IMG/VR virus record: IMGVR_UViG_2778261674_000006
Origin: a virus
Taxonomy: Duplodnaviria > Heunggongvirae > Uroviricota > Caudoviricetes
Length of the DNA: 4,247 bases
Direction: 5' to 3' (one strand)
Below, one piece after another: positions 747 to 4,247 of this stretch; position 1 is the first letter of the stretch, and every line of letters starts with the position of its first letter. The translations under genes were made by a program, and so were the position numbers. A model generated the notes under the pieces. That model was given only the letters and a program-made list of their open reading frames with translations, was not told the origin of the DNA and made no database searches.

Positions 747-1388
747 TCAGCGACCAATCACCACAACCTGACCACCATCACCTTCATCTGCCGTGCTGAT
801 CTCCTGAGATACCACCCGCGACCCCACACGCATTTCACCGTACAGAACGGGCAGGACATTGCCCTGGGCAACCATATTATCCAGTGAAGAAAAATAGGTG
901 TTCTGTTTGCCGTTATCCGTTGTCTGTGTGCGAGGGGTTTTGGGTCTAGGGGCCAGCATCTGTGCAACACCGCCAAGCGTCATACTGGCGCCGAGAGAAA
1001 ACAGCAGATTACTCGCCATAATTCCTACCCCCGGCATCCATATAGCAACCGCCATAACAGCCGCCCCCAGCACAGCCTGAAACACACCGCCACTTTTGGC
1101 TCCTGCCAGACGCGGCACGATATGGATCACAGCACCATTTGCCAGCGGTTCATTAAGACGGGCTGATAATTCCGTTTCACCTGTATCACGCCCGGCAATG
1201 CGTACCTGATACCAGCCGTCGCTCAGCTTCTGACGAAACGCCGGGATCTGCATGGCCAGCGCCCGGATGGCTTCGGCCCCCGTTTTCACACGAAGGTCGA
1301 TGCGGCGGCCAAATCGTTGCAAATCCCCGTAAAGGCAGATGCGTGCCATTCCCGGTGACGCCAGAGGGAGTGTGTGCGTCGCTGCCAT
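747..1388 (-). CDS. I: Tail assembly protein I (lambda gpI family), 213 aa
   Basis: ORF-track protein MAATHTLPLASPGMARICLYGDLQRFGRRIDLRVKTGAEAIRAL...NGKQNTYFSSLDNMVAQGNVLPVLYGEMRVGSRVVSQEISTADEGDGGQVVVIGR matches lambda gpI as I recall it. Its start overlaps the 3' end of K by 103 bp, and a ~60-bp spacer precedes J, as I recall for lambda. Confidence 0.88.
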   Translation of the reverse strand: MAATHTLPLASPGMARICLYGDLQRFGRRIDLRVKTGAEAIRALAMQIPAFRQKLSDGWYQVRIAGRDTGETELSARLNEPLANGAVIHIVPRLAGAKSGGVFQAVLGAAVMAVAIWMPGVGIMASNLLFSLGASMTLGGVAQMLAPRPKTPRTQTTDNGKQNTYFSSLDNMVAQGNVLPVLYGEMRVGSRVVSQEISTADEGDGGQVVVIGR

Positions 1389-2023
1389 TTGTCGGTATAC
1401 CTCTCTCGTTTACTCAGTTGTTCAGGAATATGGTGCAGCAGCTCACCGTCGCCGCAGTAAATGGCGGCATGATTCGGCACCGATGAACCAAAGCAGCACA
1501 GCAGCACATCGCCAGGCTGCGCCTCTGTCAGTGGGACACGGTAAAAACCAGTCGCCTCCATATTGTCAAGATAGAGATTCTGACCGTGACGCCACCAGTC
1601 ATCCCCGCGATAAAAATCCGGCATCTCAATCCCCGCCAGATGATAAGCATCCCGGAACAGCGTGTAACAGTCCGTCACCCCGTGCTCAAAGCGCCGCCCG
1701 GTGAGATGCGGCACACAGCGGAACTTGTGAATCGCCCCCCGGCAGACCAGCCACCACGGCAAATCACTCTGCACCTGCAGCCGCCGGTCGGCCTCACTCA
1801 GCCAGGGCAGACCACCGGGGTGACTGTGGACCAGCGCCACAATCTCACCCTGCATCTCTGCCTGCAGCCAGTCCTCCGGAGCCATCCGGAAATACGCCTC
1901 CGGCTCACCGGAGATATTCACGCAGGAAAAATATCTTTCCTCCTCCGGCGTTCTCACCACGAAGCCGCACGACTCCGCTGGCGCACATCGCCGGGCGTGC
2001 GCCAATATATTGCTATAGGGCAT
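1286..2023 (-). CDS. K: Tail assembly protein K (lambda gpK family; MPN/JAMM-like N-terminal region plus NlpC/P60-like C-terminal region), 245 aa from the ATG at 2023
   Basis: ORF-track frame 1286..2062. It contains the JAMM-type motif HSHPGGLPWLSEAD preceded by EMQGE, and Cys/His-containing segments (GVTDCYTLF, HAAIY, HHIPE) typical of NlpC/P60 peptidases. I chose the start at 2023 because AGGAG (2033..2029) sits 5 nt upstream; the track's ATG at 2062 would put a terminator hairpin inside the coding sequence and lacks a ribosome-binding site. An in-frame ATG at 1885 is a third alternative. Confidence 0.82.
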   Translation of the reverse strand: MPYSNILAHARRCAPAESCGFVVRTPEEERYFSCVNISGEPEAYFRMAPEDWLQAEMQGEIVALVHSHPGGLPWLSEADRRLQVQSDLPWWLVCRGAIHKFRCVPHLTGRRFEHGVTDCYTLFRDAYHLAGIEMPDFYRGDDWWRHGQNLYLDNMEATGFYRVPLTEAQPGDVLLCCFGSSVPNHAAIYCGDGELLHHIPEQLSKRERYTDKWQRRTHSLWRHREWHASAFTGICNDLAAASTFV

Positions 2024-2034
2024 GAGAACTCCTG

Positions 2035-2059
2035 ATAAAAAACCCAGCCGAAGCTGGGT
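2035..2059 (-). terminator. Intrinsic terminator downstream of the antirepressor gene and immediately upstream of the K ribosome-binding site
   Basis: Minus-strand reading: ACCCAGC-ttcg-GCTGGGT (2059..2042) followed by TTTTTTAT (2041..2034), then AGGAG and the ATG of K. This is a classic GC stem plus U-tract. Confidence 0.6.
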
Positions 2060-2077
2060 CATTTCGTTGGCAATCTG

Positions 2078-2998
2078 TTAGTAGTGATGCAGTGAAGGAG
2101 GTAATTCTTTGTTCTTAAGTCTTAGCCATGCAGAAAGATTCGTTGGTCCGTCTGGCTCATTAATATCAATATCTCGCGTGTGATTGATTAAAACGTCTCT
2201 CGCCATTCCAATAACATACGAGAACTCATGACCGTAGTCGTAGCATCTGCAGGAATAGTTCGATTGAATTTGCTTTAGCGCCGGATACAGTTCGCGGAAT
2301 AATGCCTGTGAGCGGTTGGCATAATCCCATAACCATACAAGGCTGTTTGCTTCTTTTGCAGAAAGCTCGTTGGTTTTCTTCTCTTGTTTTCCGATGAATT
2401 CGCCTTCAAGTGGAATACGAGCAGCAAGTGACAGTGCTTCGGTAAACTGCTCCTCACTGATTTCTTTGTACGAACATCCAAAATGGGATTTCAGTGACGA
2501 CCACATGGTGATCATCGCCTTCGCCTGTTTTTCTTTTGGCAGAGACTGACCGCGACTCATGACGAGTTGTTTAATAGCTTCCTGCTGTTCAGTGGTGATT
2601 TTCCCCAGCAATGCCTTTTTAGCTTTGCGCGGGTTAATCACATGGCCTTTAGTCCAGTACTCGTAGAGCACATCGTCACACTCTTCCTGATACTGGATTA
2701 CCTTCTCGCGGATTTCAGGGCGGACTTTGTTAGGACTGATGGTTTGGAGCCAACCATTCAGTTTACGCAAAGCAAGGCAAATCATGGTCTGCATACCGCC
2801 AACTGAAGGTATTGCGATTTCCACAATACCTTTAGCAAATCTTTGTTTTAACTTTGTAAACTGTGAAGCCCAATCCATACCCATTCCCTCAACGATAGGT
2901 TTCATTGGGGTGTACGGTTCGCCGTTGTGATTGACGACATAAAGCTCTGCGCCGTGGAATGGCACGTTGATAGTAGATACCGCTGTTGCTATACTCAT
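2078..2998 (-). CDS. ant: Phage antirepressor (Ant-like; the N-terminal region resembles the P22 antirepressor N-terminal domain family), 306 aa from the ATG at 2998
   Basis: ORF-track frame 2078..3052. I chose the start at 2998 (MSIATAVSTINVPFHGAELYVVNHNGEPYTPMKPIVEGMGMDWASQFTKL...) because AAGGAA (3012..3007) lies 8 nt upstream; the 3052 start adds 18 residues that overlap a terminator hairpin. The protein resembles antirepressors from enterobacterial prophages, and the gene sits directly downstream of an Arc-like gene as in P22 immI. Confidence 0.75.
   Translation of the reverse strand: MSIATAVSTINVPFHGAELYVVNHNGEPYTPMKPIVEGMGMDWASQFTKLKQRFAKGIVEIAIPSVGGMQTMICLALRKLNGWLQTISPNKVRPEIREKVIQYQEECDDVLYEYWTKGHVINPRKAKKALLGKITTEQQEAIKQLVMSRGQSLPKEKQAKAMITMWSSLKSHFGCSYKEISEEQFTEALSLAARIPLEGEFIGKQEKKTNELSAKEANSLVWLWDYANRSQALFRELYPALKQIQSNYSCRCYDYGHEFSYVIGMARDVLINHTRDIDINEPDGPTNLSAWLRLKNKELPPSLHHY
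2967..2995 (+). promoter_or_regulatory. Candidate sigma70 promoter for an antisense (sar-like) RNA: TTGATA -17 bp- TATACT
   Basis: -35 TTGATA at 2967..2972, a 17-bp spacer, and -10 TATACT at 2990..2995 on the plus strand, inside the 5' end of ant and pointing away from it. The predicted transcription start is near 3002. Confidence 0.4.
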
Positions 2999-3001
2999 TT
3001 C

Positions 3002-3071
3002 GTTAGTTCCTTGGAAGTTACTGACATAGAAGCCCGATTTGTGTTCGCGCACTGTCGGGCTTCGCTATTTT
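3002..3071 (+). ncRNA. sar: Candidate sar-like cis-antisense small RNA (~70 nt) complementary to the ant ribosome-binding site and the arc-ant spacer
   Basis: It is bounded upstream by the promoter above and downstream by a plus-strand intrinsic terminator: stem GAAGCCCGA (3029..3037) / TCGGGCTTC (3055..3063), a 17-nt loop, then GCTATTTTTAT (T-tract 3066..3071). The transcript would be antisense to the ant Shine-Dalgarno at 3007..3012. As I recall, P22 has a ~70-nt sar RNA in the same position. Confidence 0.35.
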
Positions 3072-3238
3072 TATGTCCTAGCATTCTTCTCTCCAATCAG
3101 TCCGTACACTTTTCTCAATTGATAAATAAGTTCCGTGTTGAACTGTCGACACTCTTTTTCTCCATTTCTTTCAATCGCCTTCCTTACATCCTCTGGGAAA
3201 CGAACCTTGCGTTGATACATGTCTTTTGCTTTTTCCAT
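3071..3238 (-). CDS. arc: Arc-like ribbon-helix-helix transcriptional repressor, 55 aa (not in the supplied ORF track)
   Basis: Manual translation of the minus strand from the ATG at 3238..3236 gives MEKAKDMYQRKVRFPEDVRKAIERNGEKECRQFNTELIYQLRKVYGLIGEKNART, ending at TAA 3073..3071. A strong ribosome-binding site AAGGAG (3249..3244) lies 5 nt upstream. The pattern (basic beta-strand RKVRFPEDV, then N-[ST]-E-[IL]-x-Y-Q) resembles P22 Arc (...FNLRWPREVLDLVRKVAEENGRSVNSEIYQRV...) as I recall it. Confidence 0.65.
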   Translation of the reverse strand: MEKAKDMYQRKVRFPEDVRKAIERNGEKECRQFNTELIYQLRKVYGLIGEKNART

Positions 3239-3255
3239 CTCCACTCCTTAAATAG

Positions 3256-3318
3256 CCTCACTGTGGGGCAATCAAAATTGTCACACCGTGCGTCATTGAA
3301 GTCAACCCCACCGTGGGG
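3256..3318. promoter_or_regulatory. Three candidate operator sites with a CACNGTG core, centred at 3262, 3287 and 3312 (exactly 25 bp apart)
   Basis: Site 1, 3256..3268: CCTCAC-t-GTGGGG (one mismatch). Site 2, 3281..3293: tcaCAC-c-GTGcgt (core only). Site 3, 3306..3318: CCCCAC-c-GTGGGG (perfect 6+1+6 palindrome). Sites 1 and 3 also share the direct repeat CACYGTGGGGCA. Sites 2 and 3 fall in the spacers of the two divergent promoters; site 1 lies between the predicted ant-operon start and its ribosome-binding site. Confidence 0.55.
3277..3305 (-). promoter_or_regulatory. Candidate promoter for the arc-ant operon: TTGACT -17 bp- (TGt)GACAAT, minus strand
   Basis: Minus-strand reading: -35 TTGACT (3305..3300), a 17-bp spacer, and -10 GACAAT (3282..3277) preceded by a TGn extended -10 motif. 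Site 2 lies in the spacer. Confidence 0.4.
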
Positions 3319-3324
3319 CATAAT
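3296..3324 (+). promoter_or_regulatory. Candidate promoter for the mnt-like gene: TTGAAG -17 bp- CATAAT, plus strand
   Basis: -35 TTGAAG (3296..3301), a 17-bp spacer containing the perfect palindrome (site 3), and -10 CATAAT (3319..3324). Its -35 overlaps the -35 of the divergent arc-ant promoter (3300..3305). Confidence 0.45.
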
Positions 3325-3361
3325 TTACTTATTGTGAATTTTTCCTGTTTGGACTAATGGT

Positions 3362-3736
3362 ATGAGTAGAGAAGACCCTCAACTTCGGATTAGGCTTCCT
3401 GTTGAATTAAAAAAAATAATTGAAGCGTCATCAAAACAAAATAATCGTTCTATGAATGCTGAGATTGTCACTCTGCTTGAGTTGGCGATTCGTGTTTGTC
3501 GTGATTTTGGGCCGGAGGATGGTCCTATCGTTCAGCAGTTTAAAGAACAACTAGATGCGATAAACAGAAAATATGATAAAAGCGAGCATGAAAAACTTAT
3601 ACCTCAACTTTTAGAAATCATAGAAAAACAGAAAAAACAAGTAGATAAACTTATTAGCATGGTTGAAAGATCAATTCCTCTTTCAGAGGAATATAAGCAG
3701 AAATATCTTGGTGATGACAACAAAAAACCCACCTGA
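3362..3736 (+). CDS. mnt: Mnt-like ribbon-helix-helix repressor with an extended C-terminal, probably coiled-coil, region; 124 aa
   Basis: ORF-track protein MSREDPQLRIRLPVELKKIIEASSKQNNRSMNAEIVTLLELAI... aligns by eye with P22 Mnt (MARDDPHFNFRMPMEVREKLKFRAEANGRSMNSELLQIVQDAL, from memory): M-x-R-[DE]-DP, R-[ML]-P-x-E-[VL], N-RSMN-[SA]-E-[LI]. The C-terminal ~70 residues are rich in K/E/Q/L with a heptad-like pattern. The gene is divergent from arc-ant. Confidence 0.78.
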   Translation: MSREDPQLRIRLPVELKKIIEASSKQNNRSMNAEIVTLLELAIRVCRDFGPEDGPIVQQFKEQLDAINRKYDKSEHEKLIPQLLEIIEKQKKQVDKLISMVERSIPLSEEYKQKYLGDDNKKPT

Positions 3737-3743
3737 TGGTGGG
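3722..3743 (-). terminator. Hairpin plus T-tract at the convergent L / mnt-like junction; terminator-like only for the minus (L) strand
   Basis: Minus-strand reading: CCCACC-atca-GGTGGG (3743..3728) followed by TTTTTTG (3727..3721), beginning 10 nt after the L stop codon. On the plus strand the hairpin is preceded, not followed, by the A/T run, so it is a poor terminator for the mnt-like transcript. The hairpin overlaps the last mnt-like codons and its stop (3734..3736). Confidence 0.45.
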
Positions 3744-3752
3744 CATAATCCA

Positions 3753-4247
3753 TTACTGCGAAAGCTTGTTAATGGAAAGGAAGCCGCCAAAGTTGCCGAC
3801 GTTATTGCGAAACTTACAGCCACTCAGGCATTTGCTGCATTTATCCTTCGTGATATCGGACGTTGGCTGGTCATATTCATCCGCGACTGCCGGACCGTTA
3901 TAACCGCACTCATCACCGCGATAGGTCCAGGTGCAGGTGTTGGCCAGCATGATACGTCCCGGAAAAACAGCGCCATCTGTTTCCGTCGGCGTGGACAGTA
4001 CAAAAGAGGCACTGACCGCGCTCAGTTCGCTGCACTGCTCGATGCGCCAGCGGCTGATCACCTCCTGCTCCGGATCGGCGTCGCTGTTTCCGTTGACGAA
4101 GTTCACCGCATCCAGAAAACGGGCATAAACCTTACGCCTGACCACCGTTCCGCCGACCAGACTCTGCAGGTCTTCCGCCATCCCGGTGACCATACCGTAC
4201 AGGTTAGAAACCGTCAGCGTGGGGCGCGTACTGGTGCCTTTGCCATT
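3753..4247 (-). CDS. L: Tail tip protein L, C-terminal ~164 aa; the 5' end lies beyond the window end
   Basis: ORF-track protein (from an internal Met) MVTGMAEDLQSLVGGTVVRRKVYARFLDAVNFVNGNSDADPEQEVISRWRIEQCSELS...CSKCLSGCKFRNNVGNFGGFLSINKLSQ matches lambda gpL as I recall it, including the Cys-rich C-terminus. The frame 3753..4193 is given in the track and appears to stay open up to 4247. Confidence 0.85.
   Translation of the reverse strand, partial: NGKGTSTRPTLTVSNLYGMVTGMAEDLQSLVGGTVVRRKVYARFLDAVNFVNGNSDADPEQEVISRWRIEQCSELSAVSASFVLSTPTETDGAVFPGRIMLANTCTWTYRGDECGYNGPAVADEYDQPTSDITKDKCSKCLSGCKFRNNVGNFGGFLSINKLSQ

Follow-up and report, generated by a model that had tools for sequence, protein, structure and literature searches.

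A stretch of DNA of 4,247 nucleotides from the virus record IMGVR_UViG_2778261674_000006, hereafter the window, carries on its minus strand the genes J, I, K and L of a lambda-type tail-tip block, identified by open reading frame (ORF) and family searches, and L and K are separated by an insert that sequence analysis confirms as a complete, intact cassette of the P22 immunity I (immI) type in a lambda-like Escherichia coli prophage. We consider it likely that this cassette is a working immI switch, an 'ant moron', set into the late tail operon at the L-K boundary and running in its direction. The insert (positions 2024-3752; 1,729 bp) occupies exactly the interval bounded by the start codon of K and the stop codon of L; its GC content is 42.5%, compared with 57.7% for positions 1-2023 and 56.0% for 3753-4247. 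The original prediction, made from the letters of the window alone, had described about 1.7 kb of AT-richer DNA at this place, and its coordinates prove exact. Three intact ORFs, all of full length, are found within the insert and encode an antirepressor (Ant), an Arc-like repressor and a Mnt-like repressor (Table 1).

Ant combines the N-terminal and C-terminal domains of P22-type antirepressors and is homologous to P22 Ant over its full length, with 56% identity in BLASTP (E 4e-119), rising to about 90% in the last ~115 residues. Its match in PHROG is phrog_245, 'anti-repressor Ant' (E 2e-97); a sequence search of the PDB with Ant returned no match. The ATG chosen as the start of ant is the one that RefSeq uses in the nearest relative. 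By its kinship with P22 Ant, the protein would be expected to bind and inactivate repressors of the CI/C2 type.

The divergent gene encodes a protein of the Mnt type, with an N-terminal ribbon-helix-helix (RHH) domain that is 33% identical to residues 1-43 of P22 Mnt (BLASTP, E 2e-10), exceeds the cut-off of the Pfam family Arc (E 3e-7) and finds its best match among solved structures in 1mnt, the Mnt repressor itself (E 1.5e-3). Full-length homologues that are 66-90% identical occur in E. coli, Salmonella and Citrobacter, and the C-terminal part is kept in them as a unit. An AlphaFold2 model of the monomer (mean pLDDT, the predicted local distance difference test, 69.5; pTM, the predicted template modelling score, 0.35) places helices at residues 14-26, 31-49, 55-70, 74-104 and 109-115, which suggests with moderate confidence that the C-terminal part is helical and includes a helix of 31 residues. 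The Mnt-like gene of the Shiga toxin phage TL-2011b carries one extra nucleotide close to codon 10 (~3500-3560 of the extracted locus), which is either a pseudogene mutation or a sequencing error, and the public record annotates only the C-terminal part, from MNAEIV.

The small RHH protein whose gene precedes ant by 72 nt in a shared operon matches P22 Arc in BLASTP (E 2e-5) and phrog_228, 'Arc-like repressor' (E 5.5e-6). When it was aligned together with three orthologues against five Arc proteins from other ant cassettes, hhalign returned a probability of 94.3% (E 9.6e-8) across the whole RHH region. Similarity to the Arc, Mnt and Ant families, which the original prediction had anticipated, was thus found for all three proteins, although the Arc-like assignment appears to be the weakest of the three. 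The top PDB matches of the Arc-like protein, obtained with the single sequence or with a four-sequence profile, were designed proteins and a primase, and we judged them spurious. Both regulator genes are under purifying selection (ratio of non-synonymous to synonymous change, dN/dS, 0.04-0.16): relative to the Salmonella copy, ~28 of 33 synonymous sites of arc are changed and only ~10 of 132 non-synonymous ones, a sign of strong purifying selection, and dN/dS of mnt is 0.16.

The order and orientation of these genes are those of P22 immI, as had been predicted: mnt is divergent, arc and ant (and, as we word it, sar) are co-directional with the late operon, and a terminator follows ant, as in the annotated P22 record. 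In both phages, the unit lies upstream of a tail or adsorption gene. The systems differ in their setting and in several parts. P22 is a podovirus whose cassette lies between gene 16/sieA and the tailspike gene 9, whereas the window belongs to a lambda-like siphovirus, occupies the L-K junction and carries neither sieA nor orf59a. The window Mnt-like protein has 124 residues and a C-terminal domain unrelated to that of P22 Mnt, which has 83, and between the Arc-like protein and Arc the identity, over 40 aa, is no more than ~33%. The original prediction also regarded an immunity switch within a late tail operon as foreign to the canonical lambda layout; the embedding in a late operon is itself the P22 arrangement, published as the 'ant moron', a variable region of P22-like phages with high genetic flux (Villafane, Casjens et al. 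2008, PMC2629481). The ant morons of epsilon34, CUS-3, HK620, Sf6 and Kapi1 resemble the window cassette in being variable, independently expressed late-operon inserts, often with mnt, arc, sar and ant, in their high genetic flux and in their matching boundary hairpins, but they have been described for P22-like podoviruses only, whereas the window copy sits in a lambda-like tail-tip cluster.

The 123-bp divergent spacer between the Arc-like and Mnt-like genes contains overlapping, divergent candidate promoters for both transcription units (Pant and Pmnt) together with three palindromic, operator-like sequences, O1, O2 and O3, so that predicted promoters and operators occupy P22-like positions, with a spacing that differs from that of P22. 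The centres of the three palindromes (3312, 3287 and 3262) are exactly 25 bp apart. The core of O1, CCACGGTGG, is that of the P22 Mnt operator AGGTCCACGGTGGACCT, and O3 takes the place of that operator over the Pant start; the motif CCACNGTGG has a single exact occurrence in the window, at O1, and the copies in Salmonella and Citrobacter keep O1 unchanged (100%). Lying inside Pmnt, O1 is an extra site relative to P22. O2 is identical in TL-2011b, Salmonella and Citrobacter, all of which share the Arc-like allele, and O3 becomes a perfect palindrome, CCCCACGGTGGGG, in TL-2011b and Citrobacter. The block 3277-3325 is identical at 47 of 49 positions (96%) in the Salmonella and the Citrobacter copies, whereas in these same copies the identity of the arc coding sequence falls to 77%, with saturation at synonymous sites; because of this difference, we see strong evidence that the control region 3277-3325 is under constraint.

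A candidate for the antisense RNA sar lies opposite the ant ribosome-binding site (RBS) and the arc-ant spacer, which is 68 nt long in P22 and 72 nt long in the window and can be recognised as homologous to P22 sar DNA. The candidate promoter Psar falls within the first codons of ant (its first ~35 nt), the same place as the annotated Psar of P22, and its -10 region, TTGCTA(T/A)ACT, is kept in 12 loci. The predicted RNA folds at -28.3 kcal/mol (z = -4.7) into two hairpins, the architecture of P22 sar: the 5' hairpin carries a loop complementary to the Shine-Dalgarno sequence of ant, and the other hairpin, a terminator (3029-3063), precedes a U-run. All nine distinct sar alleles (9/9) adopt the identical two-hairpin fold with differing stem sequences, and 5 of the 14 pairs of the terminator stem show compensatory changes. 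An RNAalifold consensus of the 5' hairpin was not obtained, as the alleles are not alignable in register and were therefore folded one by one; a search of the whole window against Rfam, at E up to 1, gave no match, sar lying outside its curated models. The sar antisense RNA that the original prediction had named as a candidate is thereby borne out, and strongly supported, in its sequence and its predicted structure. Sar is unannotated at every lambda-like locus that we examined.

Both ends of the insert carry a predicted intrinsic terminator acting on the late strand. The upstream one stands directly after L and overlaps, on the other strand, the last codons and stop of the Mnt-like gene (..AAA AAA CCC ACC TGA, read as KKPT*). 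The same hairpin at the mnt stop is also found in epsilon34, in P22 and in the three L-K inserts compared in which the Mnt-position gene abuts L (phage 2851, EC12 and A1); the loci of Salmonella and Citrobacter have a variant of it. The downstream terminator, 10 nt upstream of the K RBS, has a hairpin identical to the annotated one of P22 and to those of epsilon34, CUS-3, Kapi1, JLK-2012 and all L-K inserts examined. Mnt-position proteins nearly all end in KKPT because AAA AAA CCC ACC TGA is one arm plus the loop of the boundary terminator: the K-P-T C-terminus is invariant or nearly so in 19 Mnt-position homologues with differing C-terminal domains, and a DNA structural element thus fixes the C-terminus of the protein at this position. 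The KKPT* end (3727-3744) is present even on an S24 LexA-like Mnt-position protein, the C-terminal domains being otherwise unrelated.

Table 1. Features of the window; promoters, operators, sar and terminators are predicted elements.
Feature	Position	Strand	Description and basis
ant	2078-2998	-	P22-type antirepressor, 306 aa; P22_AR_N E 1e-44, P22_AR_C E 4e-29
Arc-like repressor	3071-3238	-	55 aa, RHH, first gene of the Pant operon; PHROG, BLASTP, hhalign
Mnt-like maintenance repressor	3362-3736	+	124 aa; N-terminal RHH and predicted helical C-terminal domain
Candidate Pant (arc-like and ant)	3277-3305	-	TTGACT-17-GACAAT, TG-extended; promoter scan
Candidate Pmnt	3296-3324	+	TTGAAG-17-CATAAT; promoter scan, position by analogy with P22 Pmnt
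O1	3306-3318		Perfect palindrome CCCCAC-G-GTGGGG; between Pmnt -35 and -10, abuts Pant -35
O2	3280-3294		Imperfect palindrome GACGCAC-G-GTGTGAC; between Pant -35 and -10, the P22 Arc operator position
O3	3256-3268		Palindrome CCCCAC-A-GTGAGG; ~+3 to +15 of Pant, the P22 Mnt operator position
Candidate sar antisense RNA	3002-3073	+	~72 nt; antisense to ant RBS and arc-ant spacer
Candidate Psar	2967-2995	+	TTGATA-17-TATACT, TG-extended; promoter scan, 10/12 match, best in region
Upstream boundary terminator	3717-3744	-	GCCCACC-ATCA-GGTGGGT + TTTTTGTTGT; stem 3744-3727; terminator scan
Downstream boundary terminator, after ant	2034-2060	-	GACCCAGC-TTCG-GCTGGGTT + TTTTAT; stem 2060-2041; terminator scan
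J, partial	1 to ~690	-	Family search
I	747-1388	-	Lambda_tail_I, E 7e-24
K, downstream flank of insert	1286-2023	-	Prok-JAB and NlpC/P60
L, 3' part, upstream flank of insert	3753-4247	-	Phage_tail_L, E 1e-77; TAA stop 3753-3755

Taken with what is known of P22, these elements suggest the following sequence of events. In the lysogen, the Mnt-like protein made from Pmnt would occupy the operators of the form CCCCAC-N-GTGGGG, that is, O3 over the Pant start as well as O1, and keep Pant shut. Once the phage DNA enters a cell without the Mnt-like protein, Pant would fire and the Arc-like protein and Ant would be made. Ant may then bind CI-type repressors non-covalently, either those of its own phage or those of resident lambdoid prophages, and lift repression. 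The Arc-like protein would subsequently shut this promoter, with O2, which lies between its -35 and -10 boxes, as the probable site, while the ~72-nt sar transcribed from Psar would pair with the ant RBS; Ant synthesis would therefore be brief. The two bracketing terminators are expected to insulate the cassette from unmodified read-through, and Q-antiterminated late transcription would have to pass both in order to reach K, I and J. The pairing of each protein with its operator, the timing of expression and the targets of Ant are modelled here on P22, and the same analogy underlies two proposals of the original prediction, that the module might act in trans on the repressors of other prophages and that it would be silent in the lysogen. 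Ant of P22 is reported to inactivate the repressors of P22, L, lambda and 21 (Susskind & Botstein 1975, cited in PMC3121763); its biological function is a matter of continuing debate (PMC3121763; PMC7380047).

A number of observations weigh against so close a parallel with P22. The N-terminal half of Ant has diverged from P22 Ant, and its repressor specificity may therefore differ. In the Mnt-like protein, similarity to P22 Mnt ends at residue 43, and the C-terminal 80 residues have no sequence relation to the Mnt tetramerisation domain. The Arc-like protein scores below the cut-off of the Pfam family Arc (19.1 bits, E 1.2e-3; cut-off 20.4 bits), and a plain PDB sequence search reached Arc only at E 0.2-0.6, which is not significant. 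Since O2 is similar to the Mnt-type core, binding of the Arc-like protein there is a guess. The region holds four promoter-like sites where shuffled sequence would give 3.3 +/- 1.9, so that the count is not enriched and the promoter calls rest on position and conservation. Moreover, ~61 bp separate the predicted starts of Pant and Pmnt, whose -35 boxes stand back to back among three operators, whereas P22 has ~37 bp and two operators, and the regulatory logic may differ from that of P22 on account of this spacing and operator number. Finally, the open-access literature (subscription journals were not covered) yielded no expression or binding data for any L-K cassette.

The cassette could in principle be the prophage's own SOS-induction device instead, comparable to the LexA-controlled antirepressors Tum, AntC and GfoA/GftA. 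DNA damage would then turn ant on, and Ant would inactivate a non-cleavable prophage repressor; we consider this improbable. Antirepressor-mediated induction is widespread in enterobacterial prophages (PMC3121763), and several lambda-like prophage repressors of O157 Sakai are devoid of a peptidase domain (PMC2669165), both of which would suit such a device. So would the keeper at the same L-K site in E. coli EC12, a protein with a helix-turn-helix and a Peptidase_S24 domain, which could make ant responsive to RecA. The keeper of the window, however, is an RHH protein with no S24 domain, and a search for the LexA box (CTGT-N8-ACAG, up to one mismatch) found none in 2024-3752, the sole match in the window being inside gene L; on this negative search, we rejected a model of SOS control for the window allele. 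The antirepressors of the LexA-controlled systems (186 Tum, N15 AntC, Gifsy GfoA/GftA) share with Ant the inactivation of a prophage repressor by protein-protein binding and the possibility of cross-talk (PMC3121763), but they are unrelated and much smaller proteins under host LexA, whereas the window encodes a large, P22-type Ant controlled by a phage RHH pair and an antisense RNA. In addition, P22 ant mutants are still SOS-inducible (PMC7380047), and the nearest prophage with the exact cassette has a CI with the signature of the LexA/S24 family, that is, of the cleavable type, like P22. Because of this CI, Ant is probably accessory to the carrier prophage's own induction.

A comparison with empty sites shows how the insert is seated. 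The phage mEp332 matches the window at 96% identity in its tail genes and lacks the insert, as do many other lambda-like phages with tail genes 92-96% identical, and in mEp332 the ATG that matches full-length K lies only 5 nt past the L stop. The original prediction had put about 150 bp between the L and K genes of lambda. This agrees with the RefSeq annotation (L end 14127, K start 14276, gap 148 bp), but the figure arises because RefSeq lambda annotates a shorter K, and the spacing in mEp332 is 5 nt. The insertion of ~1.73 kb also replaced the first ~6 codons of K and its RBS: K begins MPYSNIL.. in the window and MTQTESAIL.. at empty sites, and the RBS CAGGAG is that of the insert lineage. 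All L-K inserts have in common the K-side junction ..GCTGGGTTTTTTATCAGGAGTTCTCATGC(C/T)CTATAGC.., including the altered first codons of K, and because of this shared junction, a single ancestral insertion is suggested, which would later have spread and been reshuffled by recombination.

The same junctions bear on whether the insert might serve chiefly as a transcriptional valve, in which the terminators and repressor-bound DNA set the amount of late transcription that enters K, I and J and the antirepressor is vestigial. At empty sites, K starts so close to the L stop that the insert abolishes a tight spacing, the two late-strand terminators bracket the inserted DNA with the second near the K RBS, and the ant moron of P22 has been proposed to influence how far transcription reads on into the tailspike gene (PMC2629481). 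Such a role is compatible with a P22-type switch as a side effect; as the main function, we regard it as quite improbable, for Ant, the Arc-like and the Mnt-like protein are intact and under purifying selection, and sar and the operators are conserved, all of which a pair of terminators would not need. Furthermore, the same regulatory cassette governs a Bro-N cargo in other tail operons, which points to a switch for the expression of cargo.

We return to the immI switch as the preferred reading and to its distribution, for which 5,426 complete E. coli genomes were surveyed. The L-K junction is uninterrupted in 4,321 of these genomes, while a K::ant junction, counted at a coverage of at least 80%, is present in at least 461 (at least 8%), so the insert is an accessory and not a core tail component, as the earlier proposal of a moron required. 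It lies between genes that are adjacent in relatives (mEp332 and the 4,321 genomes) and brings its own terminators, a differing base composition and candidate promoters Pant, Pmnt and Psar, whose activity is a prediction. DNA matching any part of the module, mostly ant, occurs in 1,219 genomes (about a fifth), with up to seven matching places per genome in polylysogens of enterohaemorrhagic E. coli (EHEC); the exact regulator allele of the window, at L-K and at the same coverage, occurs in only two.

An L-K cassette is present in the Shiga toxin (Stx)-converting phages 2851, 1717, YYZ-2008 and Stx2a_WGPS4/6/8, in others and in many EHEC prophages, and GenBank has annotated L-K genes as antirepressors since at least phage 2851. 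Contrary to the original prediction, the placement is not unusual, since the cassette is already annotated at this site in many of these phages and prophages. In the open-access literature just mentioned we found no study in which the L-K cassette of lambda-like phages is described or tested, only work on the P22-like ant moron and on antirepressors in general. The inserts of 2851, 1717, YYZ-2008, Stx2a_WGPS4/6/8 and PhiR12_1 share with the window the identical insertion site and K-side junction as well as ant DNA that is 86-90% identical over the aligned part (~56% of the module), but their Arc-like and Mnt-like alleles and their operators differ, with palindromes of the type TGGTGCCA in 2851. 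PhiR12_1 differs further in an extra gene of the ClpP family and in having, instead of the L-side hairpin, only a related sequence further on. The window thus holds a widespread, already-annotated accessory cassette of a well-studied kind, to which it adds a rarer regulator allele and not a new principle.

The cassette could also be an inactive passenger that is decaying and has no current function. The ant morons of P22-like phages are often degraded (PMC2629481), the Mnt-like copy of TL-2011b is frameshifted, and the closest host prophage is probably defective, with an IS66 element in its small terminase gene. For the window copy, nonetheless, we hold decay to be very improbable, given that its three ORFs are all full length, that dN/dS is well below 1 and that conservation is higher in the non-coding control elements than in coding sequence.

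The individual loci show which parts vary. Phage 2851 (FM180578.1) has an unannotated, divergent ORF for a Mnt-like protein of 114 aa (5060-5404 of the extracted locus; Pfam Arc, E 2e-20), and an Arc-like gene lies beside its annotated 'antirepressor-like protein'. In E. coli EC12 (NZ_CP070229.1), a protein of 269 aa with HTH_3 and Peptidase_S24 domains (4382-5191 of the extracted locus) replaces the Mnt-like protein at the same L-K site; this keeper would potentially make ant responsive to RecA and SOS induction. The ClpP-family protease-like gene of PhiR12_1 (CLP_protease, E 2e-11; 4285-4821 of the extracted locus) stands directly past an 82-aa Mnt-like gene. The closest copy of the cassette, in E. 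coli CFSAN018748, belongs to a prophage that is probably defective, as its small terminase gene holds an element of the IS66 family (2467-5719 of the extracted locus), and this prophage carries more antirepressor-like genes (P22AR_C, KilAC, Rha) in its nin and lysis regions.

The same control unit (Mnt-like protein 83% and Arc-like protein 87-93% identical, operators ~100%, with sar) is also found in other tail architectures. In Salmonella enterica prophages, it lies in a myovirus-type baseplate operon, and in Citrobacter koseri it separates K from I in a lambda-like cluster; at both places, the cargo is a Bro-N protein together with a protein of ~250 aa and not a P22-type Ant. The Salmonella siphovirus Oslo carries mnt, arc and ant upstream of its tape-measure gene, and some of its tail proteins are annotated as ES18-similar. 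The tail-operon sites of the unit, always co-directional with late transcription, include lambda-like L-K and K-I, the site in Oslo, the myovirus-type baseplate operon and the late operon of P22. Across these loci, the cargo is either a P22-type Ant or Bro-N, and the keeper is either a Mnt-like protein of the RHH type or a self-cleaving repressor with an S24 domain, so that control unit, cargo and keeper appear to be exchangeable modules between conserved hairpins.

We propose tentatively, as an idea that may well prove wrong, that the Mnt-like/Arc-like/sar unit is a portable, terminator-bounded switch that has colonised several unrelated tail architectures, swapping cargo and keeper at its boundary hairpins, with both RHH repressors perhaps reading one CAC-N-GTG core. 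If this is true, such cassettes could form a network of prophage cross-induction in EHEC polylysogens and affect the induction of Stx phages. More generally, if the L-K antirepressors act in trans in the manner of P22 Ant, the induction of co-resident prophages could be coupled and that of toxin phages influenced. For annotation, positions 2024-3752 should be labelled an immI-type ant moron (Mnt-like, Arc-like, sar, Ant) and not tail genes; public records miss parts of the cassette, the Mnt-like gene of Stx phage 2851 being one example.

The flanks of the insert are those of an ordinary lambda-like tail block, in which every long ORF that a family search supports is encoded on the minus strand, and the L of the window is 96% identical to that of mEp332. 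The start codon of K is the ATG at 2023 (MPYSNILAHARR...), with its CAGGAG RBS upstream. A mechanical ORF list places the K start at the ATG at 2062, within the ant terminator hairpin, whereas the real start is that at 2023. K and I overlap by 103 nt (1286-1388), which matches the lambda annotation.

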